Positions 4,620 through 25,978 of a stretch of 25,978 bases of DNA are shown piece by piece (position 1 is the first letter of the stretch; the number at the start of each line of letters is the position of its first letter). Made by a program: the position numbers and the translations under genes. Under the pieces are notes generated by a model. It was not told where the DNA came from, did no database searches, and saw only the letters and a program-made list of their open reading frames with translations. Source of the stretch: a virus. Taxonomy: Duplodnaviria; Caudoviricetes. The stretch lies in the IMG/VR virus record IMGVR_UViG_3300029448_000371, positions 1-25,978 of that record; one strand, given 5' to 3'.

Positions 4620-5273
4620 TTAAAATATTCCATGATAAGAATAGTTAGTTGCAATTTTAACAATCGCAACCGCTTTTATTTTTATGTTTCTAATAGGAGC
4701 TGTTGATCCAATTGGCATTACAGTAGCTCTATTTTCTTCAGTTGGATTTTTTAATGTCATGCCACAAATTAAATTTTCTGCTTCTGTTAATACTAAACAA
4801 AAACGATTATCAAAATGTTTTTCAAGCTCATTTTTTTCAATGTATTTTCCATCAAAAATTAAAATATCATAATCAGCAGTTGCTGGATTTGCATCTCTTT
4901 GTATTCTTGGCATAAGATAAGATCTTAAACAAATATAACCTGGTGAAATTGGGAATTTACACATTATTTTTGGTCTTTCTGCTTTAAATAAAGTTACATT
5001 TTCCATTGGAAACATCTCACCAATACATTCTATTTCTAATGGTGGAAATAAAATTTCTTGTGGAGTTAAATTAAATTCTGGAATTGATGATAATTTTTTT
5101 GACAGATCCATAGTCACATCGGCTTTACCATTTAAAACTTTATTTAAATGAATTTTATTTATGCCAATCTTATCTGCGACTTCTTCCTGGGTGTAATCCA
5201 GGTGCTCTATTAAAGATTTTAAATGTTTATTTATTTGGTTATCCACTCTACTGCGTTCCGTATGATTAATCAT
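4620..5273 (-). CDS. cI-like repressor (N-terminal XRE HTH)
   Basis: YTQEEVADKIGINKIHLNKVLNGKADVT HTH; divergent from a small cro-like gene. Confidence 0.85.
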   Translation of the reverse strand: MINHTERSRVDNQINKHLKSLIEHLDYTQEEVADKIGINKIHLNKVLNGKADVTMDLSKKLSSIPEFNLTPQEILFPPLEIECIGEMFPMENVTLFKAERPKIMCKFPISPGYICLRSYLMPRIQRDANPATADYDILIFDGKYIEKNELEKHFDNRFCLVLTEAENLICGMTLKNPTEENRATVMPIGSTAPIRNIKIKAVAIVKIATNYSYHGIF

Positions 5274-5281
5274 AATGGTTA

Positions 5282-5370
5282 TAGAATTTAATGCTATTGT
5301 CTATAAATGCAAGTAAATTAATTTAAAAAACTAATTTTTTTTGACAGTTAGCATTAAAAGTGTAGATATT
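5282..5370. promoter_or_regulatory. immunity-switch intergenic region: operator 5282-5296 (one mismatch), TTGACA 5341-5346 and half-operator 5349-5358
   Basis: TAGCATTAAA occurs inverted at 5287-5296 and 5349-5358; TTGACA-18-GATATT precedes cro. Confidence 0.65.
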
Positions 5371-5376
5371 ATAGCT

Positions 5377-5574
5377 ATGAAATTGGAAACTTTTAGGGTT
5401 CAAAACAACCTAACTTATGGAAAACTCGCTATTTTCTTGGGTTTTGGTGAAAAATCAAATGCAGCCAGACTTGTCCACCGATGGTGCAAGGGGGAAACAT
5501 TACCAACCAGGAATAATATAAAACAAATCAAATCAAGAACACTTGACAAGGTTTCAGCCAATGATTTCTTCTAA
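5377..5574 (+). CDS. Cro-like HTH regulator (start revised to MKLETF)
   Basis: LTYGKLAIFLG...VHRWCKGETLP...DKVSANDFF is a typical Cro-like pattern. The ORF-track TTG start is the -35 hexamer. Confidence 0.85.
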   Translation: MKLETFRVQNNLTYGKLAIFLGFGEKSNAARLVHRWCKGETLPTRNNIKQIKSRTLDKVSANDFF

Positions 5575-18531: not shown

Positions 18532-20861
18532 TGGCACAAATACCTACTTATAAATCTCAAAGTGGTTTGAGAGCTGGAACTGGTAATACACAGCTTAGTG
18601 TTCCTGGAGGATTACAAGAGGCAGCCGCAGCTCCAGCTAATGCTCTAGCAGAGCTTGGTAAAACTGGTATGGATATGTCAGTTAAGTTTTTTGCACAGCA
18701 AAAAGCAATAGAACGAGAAAATTTATTAGCTGCTAATTATGAAAAGTTTTTAATTGGTGATGATAACAATCAAGGTTTCAATTTAATCAAAGCAGATGCA
18801 ATGTCTAAAGGAGATACCGCAGCTCTTGAAAATTTTAAAATGTTATCTGAAAATTATTACAATCAAATTTTGTCTACTATTGATGATGATGTTGTAAAAA
18901 GAGCATTTCAAGAAAAATACAATGATACTTTTGCCTCTAATTTTATTGATGTTCAATCCCAGGTTTATCAAAATAATATTGATAAAGGAAAAGAAACTCT
19001 GGCACAAAATATCAACAACTCAACAAATCGATTTGTAAATGGTTTTAATCAGTCAGAAAAAAATAAAGGTTTTAGTGAAATAGAACTAGAAATAGACAAA
19101 GCGATAGAATTGGGAATTGTAGATCCAGGCAGCAAAGATAAAATTTTATACGCAGCTCATGAGGTTGCATACAAAACAGATTTAAAACAACAAATAAATA
19201 CAAATCCCCAGGCAGTAATAGATAAAATAGAAGGCGGACTCTATAATGATTTAATTAATGCTGAGGATTTAAGTACAATAAAAAATTCTGCTCTATCTGC
19301 TGTCAGTAAAAACAACACAGAATATATTACAAATTTAACAACTAATGGTGATATTAAAAAAGAAAAATTAGAGGGTTATATAGAGTCTATAGAATTATTT
19401 GAAGCTCCAGATATGGAAAGAGTAAATGCTTTAGTTACAGAATTAGCATCAATAGACCAAGCTCGTGTTGCAGTTGGCAAAACACCAAAATATACAGATA
19501 CTATTGAAGATTATAAAGATGCTGTATTTGCATTTAATTATTTAGAAGGTATTAAAAATAATCCATCATTAGCAGATGAAATTGTTGCTCAAATAGAAAA
19601 AGAAATATCTGATGACAGAGCATTAGGTAACGATCCAAACAATTCATTAATCAAAGCCAGAGACAAGGCTATTGTTTTAAGAGATAAAATTAATAAAGAG
19701 TCCATAACCGATAATAATGTTTTACAACAAGAATTAGGAAATCCAGGATTACCAGATGTAGATTTTTTTTCAGATCCAATAACTTTTCAAACACAAATTA
19801 AAGGTGATGGAGCTGGTAGTTATAAAGAAATTATAACTAATAATGCTAATCGTATGAATATTGGTGTTCAATATTTTACAGACAATTCATTTAATAAAAT
19901 TGAAGAAAAATTAAAAACAGCTAACTATGATGATTTTGTAAATTTTTTTACAAATATTTCTAATGTAGCTGGTAAAGATACCATTGATATTTTTAATGAA
20001 TTTAAAGATTTAGATCCAGGCTTAGCTCATATTGGAATGATAATAAATCAGAATGATGGCAAAATTACAAAGCCAATGCAAAGTGCTATTAAGGGTTACA
20101 TATCTGGAAGAGATCAGAATAACAAAGATGTTTTTAGTAAGATGCCTGATGATTGGAAAATTGAAATTAACAATGAATTTTTTAATTCTGCATACGATGA
20201 AAAACAAATGCTTGGACTTAAAGATCAAATATTACAAGCTGGTAATTATATATTTTTAGATAAATTAAAAGAGTCTGATTATTTTAATGAAATGGCAAAA
20301 TCTGATTTTGCAACTGGAACATCATTTAATTTAGATGGAGATGATAAATTTACAAATTTATATAAAGACTCATTGCAAGAGGCAGCTGGTCGAATACAAA
20401 AAAATGGTCTTTATTATGGAGGCTTTCTAGAGCATGGACCAAACAATTTTATAATTATTCCAAATAACATTAGAAATGATTTTGATATTACAGATGCATT
20501 AGAAGAAGGATTGACAGATGAATTATATAACATGGCTACATTTGTTATTAGACCAAGAGTGCCAATGCCTGGCAATTTAGAAACTGAGTCTACAGAATTT
20601 GCAGCTGATTTTACAGAAACACCACAAGGACATTTTGATGGACAACCAATAGATGATTGGAAAGATTTTTTCTTTGAAAAAGAAAGTATTTACTTTTCTA
20701 ATTATGAAGAAGCTAATGGTGTTTATTATATTCACTATAACAATCCCAATGAGCCTGGATCAAAAATTTATACTGATAAAGAAGGTAGACCAATATTATT
20801 TGATCTTGCCAATATATACGATGAATTAAATAAAAATTTAGATGAATTGCAATCCAAATGA
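18531..20861 (+). CDS. internal virion/ejection protein (gp15-like)
   Basis: MAQIPTY start, long helical acidic protein; synteny. Confidence 0.7.
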   Translation: MAQIPTYKSQSGLRAGTGNTQLSVPGGLQEAAAAPANALAELGKTGMDMSVKFFAQQKAIERENLLAANYEKFLIGDDNNQGFNLIKADAMSKGDTAALENFKMLSENYYNQILSTIDDDVVKRAFQEKYNDTFASNFIDVQSQVYQNNIDKGKETLAQNINNSTNRFVNGFNQSEKNKGFSEIELEIDKAIELGIVDPGSKDKILYAAHEVAYKTDLKQQINTNPQAVIDKIEGGLYNDLINAEDLSTIKNSALSAVSKNNTEYITNLTTNGDIKKEKLEGYIESIELFEAPDMERVNALVTELASIDQARVAVGKTPKYTDTIEDYKDAVFAFNYLEGIKNNPSLADEIVAQIEKEISDDRALGNDPNNSLIKARDKAIVLRDKINKESITDNNVLQQELGNPGLPDVDFFSDPITFQTQIKGDGAGSYKEIITNNANRMNIGVQYFTDNSFNKIEEKLKTANYDDFVNFFTNISNVAGKDTIDIFNEFKDLDPGLAHIGMIINQNDGKITKPMQSAIKGYISGRDQNNKDVFSKMPDDWKIEINNEFFNSAYDEKQMLGLKDQILQAGNYIFLDKLKESDYFNEMAKSDFATGTSFNLDGDDKFTNLYKDSLQEAAGRIQKNGLYYGGFLEHGPNNFIIIPNNIRNDFDITDALEEGLTDELYNMATFVIRPRVPMPGNLETESTEFAADFTETPQGHFDGQPIDDWKDFFFEKESIYFSNYEEANGVYYIHYNNPNEPGSKIYTDKEGRPILFDLANIYDELNKNLDELQSK

Positions 20862-21388
20862 ATAAAATACAATGGGATTTTATAAGTGAATGTGAAGGTA
20901 AAGGAATAACAGTTGGTTATCAGCCTACTAATAATTCTGGTGTTACAATAGCTACTGGTTTTGATTTAAAAGAAAAAGATGATGTGTTTTGTAGATCTAT
21001 TGGTATTTCAGAACCTATTATAGAAAAATTTATAAAATATTTTGGATTGTCTGGATCTCATGCAGCTAAAGTTGCAAAAAATTTAACGCTAAGTGAAGAA
21101 GAAGTTTTTGAAGTTGATGTCTGTAGTAAAAAATATTATTCCAAAAATTTAATTAAACAATTCAATAATTTTAAGCCAGTAAAAAAATTTGAAGAATTAA
21201 CAAGTGAACAACAAACTGTATTGGCATCAGTTGGATTTCAATATGGATCTTACTCCAGGACTCCAACTTTTATTAAATACGCAGCTCATGGTGAGTGGGA
21301 TAATGTGATAAATGAACTTAATAATTTTGGTGATGCTTATGAAACCAGAAGAAAAAAGGAAGCAGCATTTTTAAATGGCAAGATTTGA
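20858..21388 (+). CDS. pesticin C-terminal-like muramidase (T4-lysozyme-type fold)
   Basis: WDFISECEG...GYQP..NSGVTIATGFDL, QTVLASVGFQYG and RRKKEA motifs. Confidence 0.82.
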   Translation: MNKIQWDFISECEGKGITVGYQPTNNSGVTIATGFDLKEKDDVFCRSIGISEPIIEKFIKYFGLSGSHAAKVAKNLTLSEEEVFEVDVCSKKYYSKNLIKQFNNFKPVKKFEELTSEQQTVLASVGFQYGSYSRTPTFIKYAAHGEWDNVINELNNFGDAYETRRKKEAAFLNGKI

Positions 21389-24300
21389 AATTGGCAAACA
21401 AGACAAAAAATCTTTTTTTACAGATACCAAAACATCAGCATATAATTTTTTTGGTGATAAAACAGCTGTAGCTAAACCGACTGAATATCGTAAAGCTCTA
21501 AATTTTATACCTATCTCAGATACCGCAGAAAAAATACAATCACAATTTCGAAATTCTATATCAGAAATATCTAATGTTGCTGATGATTTAGAAAAATCCA
21601 ATGATGATTTTTATGCTGTGTCTGGTATTCGTTTGCCTGGATTGCTTGATTATGTAGCAGAAGTAGACGATCAATTTATGGAAAAAACTTTTTTGAGTGA
21701 GACACAACAAAGAGTTTTAAGTGATGCTGATGGTCGAGAAACATTTGGAGGTACTATTACTTCAGATGCACATAGAGATGCAAAAATAGCCTGGATTGAA
21801 AATGAAAAAGAATTATGGCATCAATCAAATCGTGATAAATCTTTTCAGCCTTATAGTTATTATTATGATTTAACAAAAAAAGAATTAGCAAAATTAGAAC
21901 AGCAATTGGCAATTGAAAGCCAATATGCAGATGAAGGATCATTGTTGCCAAACATGATGGGTTCATTAAAAGGTGTTCATAAAGATCCCTTAATACTTGC
22001 TCAATATCCTTTAGCATTATCTTATGGTGGTAATTTTAAAACCTGGGGTAATGTTGCTAAAATGGCATTTACTGAATTTGCCATTGCAACAAGTTTTGAA
22101 ACTGCCATACAAAGTAAAGTTGTTTCATATAACCAGGAATTAGGATCTGATTATAACTGGACCGATGCGATGAAAGTTATTGGTCTAACTGGTGTGGGTG
22201 CAGCTGCTGGTGTTGGAGGTATTGGAGCTACTGTTAAAGGAACTGCTGCTGCTTACACAAAAATTTTTAAAAGTTCAAAAAATGCAAAAATAAAAGATAT
22301 TGCAAAAGAGTTAAATAAAAATATTGATGCTGGAAATATTAATGACTTTGAGGCTTTTTTTAGATTTATCGATGAAAGTATGTCAGATTTTAATGCTAAG
22401 GATTATTCTGATTTGCTGGAGCTCGTGCCAGAAAAAACAAGCACAGCTAATAATGTAGAACAAGTATTAAAAGCAGAGTCTATAATTAATGATAGTAATC
22501 CCTTTCCAGATACTCCAAGTGCACAGCTTGAACATATTGATAGAGCTAACAAAGCCAATAAAAAATTATTAAACGATCACAATGATGTTATTTCAGATGA
22601 AACAATCCATGAAATAAATCCAAACACAACACCAAGTAAATTTGAAATATTAGATCCAGATGATATAGAAATAGATGCTGATTTTTTTCAATTTAAAACA
22701 GATCCCTCACAAGATGAGTTTGGTGTTTCTAAAAAATTACAAGGTATTACAAAATGGAATCAAGACGCTGCTAATGTAATTTTAGTTTGGGAAAGAGCTG
22801 ATGGAGTTAAATTTATTGCAGATGGTCATCAACGATTAGGATTAGCTAAAAGAATAAAAGCTCAAAATGATGGTCAAAAAATAGAGCTTAGAGCTAGTGT
22901 TTATCGTGAGGTAGATGGCTATAACAGAGAAGATTTATTTGTAAAAGCTGCGGTTGTTAATGTTATTAATGAAACCGCTGAAGCTGCGGACCTGGCTAAA
23001 GTTGTAAGACAATATGGATCTGCATCTACTGCGTATGCTTTTGAAGTAGCTCCTCGTAATAGTATTTGGAGAACTGCTAATGACCTAGCAGAGCTAGATC
23101 CAATGGCTTGGAATTTTTATTTGAATAATAAAATTGATGATAAGGTTGCAGCTGCGGTTGGAAGGCTTGTTAAAGATAAAGATTTACATATCCAGGCATT
23201 GGAATATTTATCCAAAAATAAATATCCTAATCAAGTACAATTAGAGTCAGCCATAAGTGATTTATTAAATGCTGGTCAAACAGTATCTAAAACAGAAGAT
23301 TTATTTGGTGAGCAAGTTGTAAAAGAATTTTTAATTAATGAAAGAGCTGCGGTATTAGATAGAGGTATAAAACAACTTCAAAGAGATAAATCAATATCTG
23401 GTTACTTAGTTAAAAATGACGAAGCAATACAAAAAGGCGGTAAGAACAAACTTAACAATGAATACAATAAAAAAATTCACGATGAAACCGCTATAACACT
23501 AGAAAAAATAATCAAACTAGCTAAAATGAAAGGAGAGCTGTCCGATGAATTAACAGCGGCAGCAAAATTATATAAAGATGGCAATAAAAAAGAAGCAATT
23601 AGATATTTTAAAGAAGCTGCCAGAAGGTCGATTGGATCAGATGATCTTAGAGGGATTAGCACAAGTGGAAGCGAACGGCTACCAGTATCTGAGGGATATC
23701 AACAACCGAAACCAAAAGATCCTCCAAAATCAGAAACCACCAAAAGTTTAGACGAATTTGAAGATCCCCATGATGGGAGCTCTGCTTTAAAAATTGCTGA
23801 TGATGAGTTAGAAGATTTAGTTGAAAATCAGTCTAAAAGATCTGGTGATCTAGCTACAGCTGCTAGATCTATTCCGCCTTCTGGTGAAATAAGCCAATCT
23901 CCAGTTTTAGGATCTCGTGCTACTACTACAGACGAGCCATCAACTGTTTTTGCCAATGCTACTGCAATCCCATTAAAATCTCGTATCGAGGTTACTAGTT
24001 CTATTGGTGATGTGAGTTCCATTTCTGGTTTAAGAATACTTCAAATAACAGATAATATCAATGATCTTTACAAATTAGCCAAAAAAAATATTAAAGGTAT
24101 AAAAAATGAACTGCAATCTGTGGCTAAAAATTATGAAAAAACTAATGTTATAGCCAATTTAAAAGAAAAAAATACTTTACTCGAGAATATAGCTATAAAG
24201 CAAAAAACTTTTAAAAATGCTTCTGCGGCTAACGAACCAGATATTGCTAGAGGAGCAATTCTAGTTGAAAATTTATCTGATATACCAAATATTATAAAAG

Positions 24301-24758
24301 ACATAGAAGCAAAATTTAAAGTTACAAAAGAACCTAATAATTATTTTTTAAGACCAAAAAGAGGTTATCGTGCAGTTCATATTCAGTTATTGACTAAAGA
24401 TGGATTGGGTTTTGAATTACAAATACATCATAAAGATTTATTTAAATTATATAAAGTTCAAAGAAAAAGAGAAGATGGATATAATGCCTATAAAAAATTA
24501 CGAAAACCTACACCAGAACAAGAAAAAAGATTTGAAGCAGCTGCGTTAAGAGATAAAGCTGAAACAAGCGATCTATTTAAAAAAATACAGGATGAAGAAG
24601 ATTTACAAACAATACAAAAATTAGATGAAGATTATGAAATTGAAGTCACATTAGATGATGGAACGATGATGAATAAAACAACAAGAGAGATGTTTGATGA
24701 CATCCAGGATGATCGAAAAATCATTGACACTCTCGCTGCTTGTCCAGGGATACAATAA
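21375..24758 (+). CDS. large multidomain ejection-type protein with a Gly/Ala hydrophobic segment, ParB-like domain and RelA/SpoT-like domain
   Basis: ParB-like ILVWERADGVKFIADGHQRL (about 22780-22840). RelA/SpoT-like LKEK...DIARGAILV...NYFLRPKRGYRAVH...FELQIH (about 24160-24430). Confidence 0.8.
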   Translation: MARFEIGKQDKKSFFTDTKTSAYNFFGDKTAVAKPTEYRKALNFIPISDTAEKIQSQFRNSISEISNVADDLEKSNDDFYAVSGIRLPGLLDYVAEVDDQFMEKTFLSETQQRVLSDADGRETFGGTITSDAHRDAKIAWIENEKELWHQSNRDKSFQPYSYYYDLTKKELAKLEQQLAIESQYADEGSLLPNMMGSLKGVHKDPLILAQYPLALSYGGNFKTWGNVAKMAFTEFAIATSFETAIQSKVVSYNQELGSDYNWTDAMKVIGLTGVGAAAGVGGIGATVKGTAAAYTKIFKSSKNAKIKDIAKELNKNIDAGNINDFEAFFRFIDESMSDFNAKDYSDLLELVPEKTSTANNVEQVLKAESIINDSNPFPDTPSAQLEHIDRANKANKKLLNDHNDVISDETIHEINPNTTPSKFEILDPDDIEIDADFFQFKTDPSQDEFGVSKKLQGITKWNQDAANVILVWERADGVKFIADGHQRLGLAKRIKAQNDGQKIELRASVYREVDGYNREDLFVKAAVVNVINETAEAADLAKVVRQYGSASTAYAFEVAPRNSIWRTANDLAELDPMAWNFYLNNKIDDKVAAAVGRLVKDKDLHIQALEYLSKNKYPNQVQLESAISDLLNAGQTVSKTEDLFGEQVVKEFLINERAAVLDRGIKQLQRDKSISGYLVKNDEAIQKGGKNKLNNEYNKKIHDETAITLEKIIKLAKMKGELSDELTAAAKLYKDGNKKEAIRYFKEAARRSIGSDDLRGISTSGSERLPVSEGYQQPKPKDPPKSETTKSLDEFEDPHDGSSALKIADDELEDLVENQSKRSGDLATAARSIPPSGEISQSPVLGSRATTTDEPSTVFANATAIPLKSRIEVTSSIGDVSSISGLRILQITDNINDLYKLAKKNIKGIKNELQSVAKNYEKTNVIANLKEKNTLLENIAIKQKTFKNASAANEPDIARGAILVENLSDIPNIIKDIEAKFKVTKEPNNYFLRPKRGYRAVHIQLLTKDGLGFELQIHHKDLFKLYKVQRKREDGYNAYKKLRKPTPEQEKRFEAAALRDKAETSDLFKKIQDEEDLQTIQKLDEDYEIEVTLDDGTMMNKTTREMFDDIQDDRKIIDTLAACPGIQ
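23828..24022 (-). CDS. nested antisense gene (64 aa), candidate antitoxin/immunity protein
   Basis: Protein-like sequence while the + frame is a Ser/Thr-rich linker; dedicated promoter directly upstream. Confidence 0.6.
   Translation of the reverse strand: MELTSPIELVTSIRDFNGIAVALAKTVDGSSVVVARDPKTGDWLISPEGGIDLAAVARSPDLLD
24033..24061 (-). promoter_or_regulatory. sigma70-like promoter for the nested antisense gene
   Basis: TTGATA (24061-24056), 17 bp, TATTCT (24038-24033), 10 nt before ATG 24022. Confidence 0.55.
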
Positions 24759-25978
24759 TGAGTTTACAAGAATGTATAGTTAGAGCTGCTGATGCTGGTA
24801 TAATTAATGATGCAAAACAAGCTGATTTATTAAATGATTATCAATCAAACTATCAAAAATATTTAGACGAAGGTTTATCTACAGATGACGCTGCTAAAAA
24901 AGCTGGGATAGATACATTTGATGAATTAAAATTTAAATCTGCACAAAAGACCAGGAGAGCTGTATTAGATTATAAAATAAAAAAACAATTTGAATTTGAT
25001 GCTCAAAGATACCTAGAAGAAAATCCAAAGAAAAAAGGATTGTTTGCATTTTTACAAGAAAAAGTTTTTTTTACTGAAGTAGCTGAAGGTAGAACAAAAA
25101 CATCATCTGTAGAAGAAAGAATAAATATTACACAAGGTAGATTAGACGAAATATTTATAAATGTTTTACAAAATTTTAGACACAATTTATTAGGTACAAA
25201 TCGTAATAAAGCAACAATGCGATTGATGGGAAAAGAAATATTTGAGCCAGGATCTACTGGTAACAAAGCAGCTGAAGAATTAGCCAAAGCCTGGATAGCA
25301 GCTGCGGAGGAAGCTCGTAAATTATTTAATGCAGCTGGTGGTTCTATTCCTAGATTTGAAAGATGGCATTTACCACAAAAACATAATGAATTGTTGATAA
25401 AAGATACTGGTTACGATGCCTGGAGAAAATTTTTAGATGATAACGATATTTTAGATGTTGATAATATGATTGATTATTCTACTGGTAAAAAATTTACAAA
25501 AGCAAAATTAGAAATGGCTCTTACTGATGTTTACAACACTATTGCAACACAAGGTCATTCTAAAAATAAAAAAATAATTAATGGTAGCAGTTTTGCTAAT
25601 CGAAGAACAGATCATCGATTTTTACAATTTAAAAATTATGATGCCTGGGAAACCTATAATAATAAATTTGGCAAAGGTAATGTTTTTGACTCTATGGTTG
25701 GTCATATAAAAACTATGGCTAGAGATATAGGTACAATGCAAATTTTAGGCACAAATCCAAAGAGAATGTTGGAATGGATGGGTGAGTTTGATGTTGCACA
25801 AATAAATAAAAATCAAAAATTATCTGGAAAAGAAACAGATAAATTATTACAAAAAAATAATAGAGCACAAAGAATATTAAATGATGCTTATAATTTTTAT
25901 ACTGGCACACTCAATGATCCAGAAAATGTTGCAGTTGCAAAGTTTTTTGGAGGTATGAGAGATCTTACTTCTGCCATG
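24758..25978 (+). CDS. large internal virion/ejection protein (gp16-like), truncated by the window end
   Basis: TAATG coupling; MSLQECIVRAADAG..., WHLPQKHN, HRFLQFK and ARDIGTMQILGTNP motifs; no stop noticed. Confidence 0.8.
   Translation, partial: MSLQECIVRAADAGIINDAKQADLLNDYQSNYQKYLDEGLSTDDAAKKAGIDTFDELKFKSAQKTRRAVLDYKIKKQFEFDAQRYLEENPKKKGLFAFLQEKVFFTEVAEGRTKTSSVEERINITQGRLDEIFINVLQNFRHNLLGTNRNKATMRLMGKEIFEPGSTGNKAAEELAKAWIAAAEEARKLFNAAGGSIPRFERWHLPQKHNELLIKDTGYDAWRKFLDDNDILDVDNMIDYSTGKKFTKAKLEMALTDVYNTIATQGHSKNKKIINGSSFANRRTDHRFLQFKNYDAWETYNNKFGKGNVFDSMVGHIKTMARDIGTMQILGTNPKRMLEWMGEFDVAQINKNQKLSGKETDKLLQKNNRAQRILNDAYNFYTGTLNDPENVAVAKFFGGMRDLTSAM

Follow-up and report, generated by a model that had tools for sequence, protein, structure and literature searches.

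The question raised by the 25,978-bp contig IMGVR_UViG_3300029448_000371 (hereafter the window, that is, the whole stretch of DNA analysed, an incomplete phage genome) is whether one of its virion-protein genes carries a second, functional gene on the opposite strand and, if so, what the product of that gene does. The sense gene, at 21375..24758 (+), encodes a 1127-aa protein of the internal or ejected virion type, apparently organised in the style of polyvalent proteins and with a swappable C-terminal cassette. A preliminary description of the window, made from the sequence alone, pointed to a 64-aa open reading frame (ORF) at 23828..24022 (-) and proposed it as the immunity partner of a RelA/SpoT-like domain in that cassette. 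The ORF is present as described, with its ATG at 24022-24020, its stop codon at 23830-23828 and the translation given there. The sense peptide quoted opposite it was also recovered, as was the promoter-like element at 24033..24061 (-), which consists of a -35 hexamer TTGATA (24061-24056), a 17-nt spacer and a -10 hexamer TATTCT (24038-24033) ending 10 nt from the ATG. Comparison with homologous cassettes indicates that the ORF is very probably a real nested gene, conserved and under purifying selection in its own frame.

Taken by itself, the window does not set this ORF apart. The antisense frame shares its third codon positions with the sense frame. A stop in this wobble-sharing frame needs a sense Tyr, His or Gln codon after a suitable wobble base, so that long shadow ORFs are common in it: the plus-strand genes of the window hold 17 stop-free runs of at least 64 codons in 6228 codons, and the 1127-aa gene by itself has antisense runs of 78, 73, 70 and 69 codons, with three runs as long as the ORF or longer. 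When the window segment was resampled synonymously, the frame was still open in 40% of cases. The promoter is one of 26 matches in the window scoring at least 9/12, and shuffled sequences give 23.8 ± 5.8. In the single sequence, neither the length of the ORF nor the score of the promoter exceeds chance; an excess over chance emerges only from the comparison with relatives.

Relatives were gathered in several searches. A word-index search with sense residues 760-1127 returned 32 proteins, 20 of which carry PF04607 (RelA_SpoT) and 4 Zeta_toxin/AAA_33. A profile scan of viral contigs yielded 438 relatives, and the best 80 of these (L001-L080) were used; among them, 15 loci contain a RelA/SpoT-type cassette, 14 recognised by blast, plus L037. 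Cassette-specific scans added 28 viral and 80 metagenomic loci (108 in all), of which 106 gave a match to the hidden Markov model (HMM) and 104 span the linker. Together with the window these make 105 sequences, 80 of them distinct over the first 360 nt, and 13 clusters were defined at 70% nucleotide identity. The homologues share 27-51% amino-acid identity with the window's cassette. Close relatives were not found by the single-protein search of viral contigs, and tblastn of the C-terminal part against named phages gave no match.

Stops in the antisense frame of close homologues would, according to the preliminary description, have counted against its proposal; the frame is open in all 80 distinct cassettes. 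The antisense ORFs have lengths of 59-85 codons, three of them extending past the end of their locus, and start with ATG in 77 sequences and GTG in 3. The start, at sense residue 883, occupies the same column in 64 sequences, lies three codons upstream in 15 and five upstream in one, and the stop codons fall at sense residues 802-819. In the first 14 loci collected, 13 had no antisense stop over the aligned region, and L030 had a single one at the edge. In the full-gene codon alignment of 14 sequences, the longest all-open antisense stretch corresponds to residues 820-884 (60 occupied columns), followed by one of 33, and the other two antisense frames reach at most 17 all-open columns.

Because the two frames share their wobble positions, most antisense residues are fixed by the sense residues, and only special sites separate the two frames. 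One such site is the codon before an invariant sense Gln, which ends in C in 80/80 sequences despite a varied residue (Thr in 51, Ser in 13, Ile in 9, Phe in 4 and Asn in 2) and a background frequency of C at third positions of 8.6%. The resulting C-CA is read as TGG (Trp) on the antisense strand; a T would give a stop, and an A or G would give Cys. The codon before a second Gln likewise ends in C (61/67), as does the codon that completes the antisense ATG (64/78), and in the first set 30 of the 31 codons preceding Gln in the region were C-ending. Counted by cluster, C forms the majority at the first Gln, second Gln and ATG sites in 13/13, 7/12 and 9/12 clusters, respectively. The remaining wobble columns in the region are mixed A and T.

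An OLGenie-style wobble test was restricted to sites with identical flanking bases and applied to 36 pairs, with each sequence used once. Changes were classed as SN (silent in sense, amino-acid-changing in antisense), SS (silent in both) or NS (changing in sense, silent in antisense). Over the ORF region, SN amounted to 22/320 and SS to 283/915, giving an SN/SS of 0.22 (Fisher p 1e-20) and an NS/SS of 0.66 (p 0.001). In the enzyme domain and tail, used as a control, SN was 217/618 and SS 773/2013, with an SN/SS of 0.92 (Fisher p 0.14) and an NS/SS of 0.18. Changes that alter the antisense protein while remaining silent in the sense protein are suppressed about 5-fold in the ORF region, and the same SN/SS pattern was observed in all four divergence bands when all pairs were counted. 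With 110 more upstream codons included (76/80 sequences, 35 pairs), the low SN/SS spans residues ~804 to ~890 and ends at the start and stop of the ORF. Doubly silent sites diverge at 0.31 in the ORF region compared with 0.38 in the control, which is nearly the same and argues for a constraint on codons, not on nucleotides. The expectation of the preliminary description that selection would favour the minus frame is borne out by this contrast with the control and by its limits. Within the enzyme domain, the wobble-sharing frame contains a further antisense ORF, of 57 aa (24131-24304 (-)), which is preceded closely by a 10/12 promoter-like site (24320-24291 (-)); SN/SS in its region is ~1, and it looks like an ordinary shadow ORF.

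The sense frame is selected as well. Its Gln residues are always encoded by CAR and never by CAY, though the antisense frame is indifferent at that position, and NS/SS is below 1. Across sense residues 816-855, NS/SS is 0.5-0.9, versus 0.0-0.3 in the enzyme domain. On the other side, the antisense proteins contain 3 Tyr, no His and no Gln in 6311 residues (80 sequences). This near-absence keeps the sense frame free of stops, and the C-ending codons before sense Gln give Trp instead of a stop in the antisense frame. By these codon patterns the stretch is genuinely dual-coding, each frame constraining the other, and within residues 816-855 the antisense frame is under stronger constraint than the sense frame.

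The promoter-like element was searched for with an anchor on the antisense start, allowing a 16-18-nt spacer and a -10 ending 5-14 nt before the start. A score of at least 9/12 was reached in 54/80 sequences at the antisense start, compared with 3.5% at random anchors on the same strand and loci, and a score of at least 8/12 in 74/80 compared with 20%; these sequences are related, and the counts are not independent, with all major clusters taking part. The mean best score was 8.79 at the antisense start and 6.71 ± 1.0 at random anchors. TATAAT is the commonest -10 (28 sequences), and the most frequent distance from the end of the -10 to the start is 10 nt (39 sequences); in most relatives the element lies 6-12 nt upstream of the ORF. 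In 55/80 sequences the G of the -35 pairs with a C at a sense wobble position, and the sense codons concerned encode Phe, Val, Ile or Tyr. A promoter-like element is therefore conserved at the position where the preliminary description had placed a promoter. A 4-nt Shine-Dalgarno-like word precedes only 1/80 of the antisense ORFs, versus 6/17 of the plus-strand genes in the window. The closeness of the -10 to the ATG, combined with the missing Shine-Dalgarno motif, predicts a leaderless or near-leaderless mRNA.

Sequencing runs containing the segment were also surveyed. Of the 24 runs listed, 17 DNA runs contain at least half of the sampled words, and small shares occur in three metatranscriptome runs, which come from two studies. 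The RNA contigs cover 23780-24005 (226 nt, X18), 23782-24009 (228 nt, X19) and 23837-24014 (178 nt of a 268-nt contig, X20). The other 90 nt of the X20 contig are unlike the window to the left of 23837; this contig derives from a variant phage that departs from the window once the antisense ORF has ended. Over 22600-25400, depth was present in 3, 3 and 5 of 30 bins in X18, X19 and X20, respectively, and outside 23780-24014 these runs contributed only two 22-nt X20 pieces from one unrelated record; as these are contig data, uncovered late-gene regions do not indicate silence. Four DNA runs cover 30/30 bins, with contigs bridging both ends of the segment (22600-24164 in X2; 22631-24259 in X7). 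These data hint weakly at a discrete RNA, one end of which would lie near 24005-24014. Such a position fits minus-strand transcription initiated shortly before the ATG at 24022, the contigs themselves being strandless. Two alleles of the segment 23816-23999 were observed in DNA runs: X6 holds two 135-nt contigs at 23816-23950, one with 8 differences, and X5 two 140-nt contigs at 23860-23999, one with 13 differences.

The preliminary description had further suggested that the ORF, its promoter and the RelA/SpoT-like domain form one swappable cassette, and the distribution of the ORF agrees with this. Relatives of the Zeta type are up to 91% identical to the window up to ...DEFE[DN]PHDGSSALKIADEELEEL (about residue 815) and rejoin it at ...LDE.YEIEV...CPGIQ. 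The interval between the two junctions (23819/23820 and ~24600) is occupied by a Zeta cassette in some sequences and by the linker together with the RelA/SpoT cassette in others. The C-terminal tail at 24621..24755 (+), which includes the latter motif and is common to the Zeta-toxin-cassette relatives, marks the right-hand edge of the cassette and gives blast matches in loci without a RelA/SpoT-type cassette. Zeta_toxin/AAA_33 cassettes occur in proteins P0006-P0009 and in loci L003, L004, L008, L010, L011, L023, L034, L040, L042, L044, L064, L070 and L077; the Zeta_toxin cassette of L064 also has a weak ART-PolyVal match. Scanning of 30 other C-terminal regions identified 13 with Zeta_toxin and 17 without any Pfam family, and no conserved antisense frame was found in these 30 cassettes, where the longest all-open run is 14 occupied columns. 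An HMM of the antisense protein matched 16/81 sources (L001-L080 and the window), exactly those with a RelA/SpoT-type cassette (16/16), and none of the 65 others, an association that is partly forced by construction because the ORF overlaps the N-terminal extension of the cassette. Its informative part is the pairing kept across 13 deeply diverged clusters.

Upstream of the left-hand junction, at 23475-23775 (sense residues 700-800), several wobble columns are fixed as G or C in 14 relatives (residues 701, 712, 717, 722, 749, 756-760, 764 and 775), and synonymous divergence is low (pSS 0.10-0.25, versus ~0.3 in the cassette). The window has a 73-codon antisense run here (23480-23698), in a frame that is not open in all relatives. 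These residues may represent a homogenised recombination flank for cassette exchange.

The sense side of the cassette can be divided into three parts. The linker (residues 816-855; 23820..23939 (+)) lies opposite the C-terminal half of the antisense protein and is weakly constrained and predicted to be disordered (pLDDT, the predicted local distance difference test, of 29-39). The N-terminal extension of the enzyme domain (residues 856-895; 23940..24059 (+)) lies opposite the antisense N-terminal half and the promoter; it carries the conserved motif PPSTVFA.A..P...SIG in the alignment of sense cassettes (A2) and is modelled with a pLDDT of 84-93 as extended segments packed on the enzyme domain. 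The low-information linker of the preliminary description thus holds for residues 816-855 (pLDDT <50), whereas residues 856-895 are conserved and confidently modelled. The third part is the domain resembling small alarmone synthetases, in particular their toxic members (toxSAS), at residues 896-1082 (24060..24620 (+)).

The RelA/SpoT identity of this domain was not confirmed by Pfam on the window protein, which does not match PF04607 even at E≤10 and shows no second Pfam domain, the ParB-like region included; phmmer of its C-terminal 255 aa against the PDB also gave no match. It was recovered through the relatives, profile searches and the predicted fold. PF04607 is present in 24/30 phmmer relatives at E≤0.001, 21 of which score at least 27 bits, and some of these sit in proteins with ddrB-ParB and LPD38. 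The A2 profile matches RelP (6ewz, E 3.3e-11), also RelQ and Rel, and weakly Tas1 (0.012). AlphaFold2 on A2 gave a pLDDT of 79.5 overall, with a small-alarmone-synthetase fold beyond residue 895, and a Foldseek search with the domain model returned 73 matches at E≤0.001, including RelQ (5DED, E 5.9e-8), CapRel (7ZTB, 6.8e-7; 9ERV) and RelP (6EWZ). In A2, D141, G182, Y183, H187, E199 and Q201 are invariant and R146 and R184 nearly so; they align with RelP motifs, and we take them to be the catalytic motifs (the D..G.R strand, GYR..H and E.Q). Judged by profile and model, the sense domain appears to be a divergent small alarmone synthetase of the RelA/SpoT type. Iyer et al. (2017; PMC5512222) describe RelA/SpoT domains as specific to phage-type polyvalent proteins and propose that they trigger an alarmone-like response in the host.

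The antisense product is predicted to be the compact, beta-rich protein anticipated in the preliminary description. AlphaFold2 on an alignment of 34 antisense peptides (A3) gave a pLDDT of 93.3 and a predicted template-modelling score (pTM) of 0.77, with strands at 14-16, 19-26, 31-36 and 43-45 and a helix at 53-58. The family is acidic (median isoelectric point (pI) 4.2, net charge -5.5), while the enzyme domain is basic (median pI 9.3). In an index of 5.8 billion proteins, 74 match A3, mostly from short contigs that cut the long sense ORF, and some of these carry extra parts rich in Tyr, His and Gln. One C-terminal extension is conserved among four diverged cores (P0115, P0142, P0150 and P0152), and another is common to P0161, P0162, P0163 and P0172; N-terminal extensions were observed in P0138, P0178 and P0188, and P0190 is a 366-aa protein with the core in the middle. 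These long core-containing proteins span 183-366 aa. In extended proteins the core stays without Tyr, His and Gln and the extensions do not, as would be expected if only the core were overlapped.

The DNA context of the extended proteins was sought in viral contigs, where scans matched only nested-copy cores or nothing, and in named phages, which gave no match to them. A genome scan identified one nested copy, on a contig of a Pelagibacter metagenome-assembled genome (MAG; L198); a further match, L199, is a false, GC-rich one. Two of the long proteins were set aside as clear assembly chimeras, namely P0187, with part of an ATP-synthase beta subunit (PF00006), and P0189, with FlhA (PF00771). 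P0143 joins the core to a eukaryote-like C-terminus ending in EEVD, which we take to be that of Hsp70. All three come from contigs of 560-1361 nt, and P0143 is, like the other two, most likely an assembly chimera.

How such a gene could work can be proposed as follows. Host RNA polymerase would transcribe it from the promoter inside the enzyme-coding DNA, as a leaderless mRNA, at a time when the late genes are silent, either in the lysogenic state or soon after infection. Its acidic, beta-rich product would then inhibit the enzyme by binding to the basic synthetase domain. Phage-carrying cells would then be protected from the effector ejected by kin virions, or the producing cell would be protected during assembly, and the nesting would keep effector and immunity together through cassette exchange. 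The arrangement may have originated when a virion protein read through the complementary strand of a small gene whose product lacked Tyr, His and Gln and so became fused to the enzyme, since the opposite strand of a protein without these residues is automatically open. That the antisense product is an immunity or antitoxin protein for the RelA/SpoT-like domain we consider an evenly poised proposition. Taken as a whole, a selected nested antisense gene with a predicted immunity product is slightly more likely than not as the explanation of the locus, and the full scenario, in which a virion-delivered synthetase effector, a nested leaderless immunity gene, protection in the lysogen, an indivisible cassette and a read-through origin all hold jointly, is put forward tentatively, as something short of an even prospect.

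Several observations weigh against the immunity scenario. The co-occurrence with the cassette is in part a matter of construction, as noted above, and in the window's own copy Arg replaces the first conserved antisense Trp. The antisense protein matched no Pfam family and, by sequence, no solved structure in the PDB; its model gave a best Foldseek E-value of 0.66 in the PDB and 0.14 in BFVD, and the best hit of VIA-align wide was one propeller blade at Z 4.5. A look-up in the ESM Atlas likewise returned weak, uninformative matches, with recognition below the usual mark. The YXXY motif of the ATfaRel2/pZFD antitoxins is absent, and since the window copy has no Tyr at all, it cannot carry that motif. 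For a pZFD-like fold, no PDB match was obtained at E≤0.001; known antitoxins are absent among the matches listed, which does not by itself exclude them. The RNA contigs, being without strand or true ends, may stem from a stable piece of the sense mRNA or from an antisense RNA that does not code for protein. Why an enzyme ejected into a new host should need an immunity protein is a matter of argument. Finally, no integrase was found in the 26-kb window, and because this incomplete contig lacks one, expression in the lysogen is conjecture.

The same observations have to be weighed under other explanations. If the gene is real and its product does not neutralise the synthetase, that product could be a moron expressed in lysogeny that excludes superinfecting phages or modulates the host, a chaperone in the packaging or assembly of the virion protein, or a regulator, and the gene would sit in the linker only because this stretch tolerates overprinting. 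All the evidence for a real gene applies equally to this possibility, which also accommodates the lack of resemblance to any known antitoxin, the physically forced co-occurrence and the extended relatives (P0188, P0190 and P0115/P0142/P0150/P0152) that hint at uses outside a nested setting. We nevertheless consider it unlikely, though to be taken seriously: the association is kept across the 13 deeply diverged clusters, no sister cassette has the ORF, the opposite charges fit a binding pair, and some of the long family matches (P0187, P0189) are chimeras.

Explanations that deny a role to the encoded protein fare worse against the codon-level data. A functional antisense RNA of ~230-270 nt, driven by a promoter inside the enzyme-coding DNA, could repress the late mRNA or cause its processing, either as type I or III antitoxins do or through transcriptional interference, and the ORF would then be incidental. 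Such an RNA would account for the conserved promoter-like element, for the discrete short RNA over the segment and for the missing Shine-Dalgarno motif. It is nonetheless improbable, given that doubly silent changes are almost free while antisense-changing ones are suppressed, that conservation extends to the ATG, to where the stops fall and to the codons for Trp and Met, and that the peptide folds with high pLDDT (93); an RNA role could, however, coexist with coding. Still less probable is a functionless shadow ORF produced by sense composition, with few Tyr, His and Gln and a Ser/Thr/Ala-rich linker. The window alone is compatible with it, as the ordinary length of the ORF, the synonymous resamplings and the shuffled promoter counts indicate, but it does not predict a frame open in every homologue, the invariable Trp-giving wobble C, the low SN/SS relative to the control, a signal that stops at the ORF boundaries or the absence of anything comparable in Zeta-type and other cassettes. 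An element acting at the nucleotide level, such as an RNA structure, a recombination or packaging signal or a site of cassette exchange, could be suspected from the GC content of the segment (0.40-0.43 versus 0.23-0.30 nearby) and from the lower synonymous divergence just upstream, at residues 700-800; it would also constrain the doubly silent sites, yet these diverge nearly as in the control, and we give this possibility very little credence indeed.

The surroundings of the gene provide the setting for these proposals. Profile matches reveal a podovirus-type structural module on the plus strand of the window, which contains small and large terminase, portal, scaffold, major capsid protein, tail tube A and B, an internal virion protein, a pesticin-like lysozyme, the 1127-aa gene and a virion structural protein of phrog_684. 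The 1127-aa protein itself matches phrog_10691 (a 3925-position profile). HTVC010P-type phages include some that are temperate, with an integrase and a regulator, according to the available text of PMC8477408. The window portal shares 57-60% identity with HTVC010P-type Pelagibacter phages, and one relative locus sits on a contig binned as a Pelagibacter MAG; on these grounds the host is probably SAR11, and the virion protein appears to be pelagiphage-like. An HTH_3 regulator of 217 aa (4623-5273 (-)), neighbour to a replication-initiator gene, is divergent from the replication and structural genes and separated from them by a 270-nt gap (5273-5543); its arrangement looks like an early or lysogeny switch. 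No terminator-like sites were found in 21000-25978. The pesticin-like lysozyme gene (20858-21388) overlaps the start of the 1127-aa gene (21375) by 14 nt, and some relatives have the two joined in frame, with the lysozyme domain at the N-terminus of the homologue, as in P0035 (1423 aa, Pesticin at residues 4-154); stop-to-stop ORFs of 1423-1447 aa are present in L012, L017 and L029.

Certain features of the locus recall known systems. The lambda cI gene transcribed from PRM is a leaderless phage gene expressed in lysogeny; here too only about 10 nt or less separate the putative promoter from the ATG, no Shine-Dalgarno motif is present, a leaderless mRNA is predicted and expression is proposed for the period when late genes are off. 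Pairs of toxSAS enzymes and their partners (FaRel2-ATfaRel2, CapRel, PhRel, Tas1-Tis1) likewise combine a synthetase domain with a small, compact, tightly linked protein, and the synthetase fold found here matches small alarmone synthetases and CapRel. Such enzymes are described in the accessible text of PMC11782079 as neutralised by small cognate folded proteins that block the active site. In those pairs the partner is a neighbouring cistron on the same strand and the toxin is free, whereas here the candidate gene lies on the opposite strand inside the effector frame and the synthetase, a putative toxin, is the C-terminal cassette of a virion protein. The antisense protein lacks the YXXY motif that PMC11782079 describes for antitoxins of the ATfaRel2/pZFD class and shows no detectable likeness to pZFD, Tis1, SAH or Panacea.

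The polyvalent proteins of Iyer et al. (2017; PMC5512222) are, in the portion of that paper available, large, virion-associated and multidomain, combining ParB-like and RelA/SpoT domains with extensive domain shuffling. The present family resembles them in the ddrB-ParB and LPD38 of domain relatives and in the Zeta-toxin and ART-PolyVal cassettes at the same position in sister phages; an embedded antisense gene or immunity partner is not described in that portion. Antisense overlapping genes of bacteria (E. coli, Pseudomonas), as far as the available parts of PMC9927249, PMC8850804 and PMC7457138 go, are similarly embedded antisense in the wobble-sharing frame, similarly discarded by gene callers and judged by purifying selection on the alternative frame. 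They concern one species, while the case described here extends over 13 deeply diverged clusters, in a phage structural gene and within one exchangeable effector cassette. Among the papers listed by full-text searches of the openly available literature, none was seen to report a nested antisense partner of a toxSAS-type effector.

To our knowledge, antisense protein-coding genes with deep conservation are very rare, and claims of them are disputed. The antisense gene described here brings comparative evidence with an internal control and clean boundaries, together with a hint of expression in ocean samples, and it offers a concrete case of mutual codon constraint between two frames. Should the immunity role prove true, it would represent a new wiring of toxin and antidote, in which the two strands of one DNA segment encode the two proteins and the antidote's promoter sits within the toxin's coding sequence, and it would explain how effector cassettes can be swapped safely in phage virion proteins. 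It would also mean that functional partners of phage effectors routinely escape gene callers.

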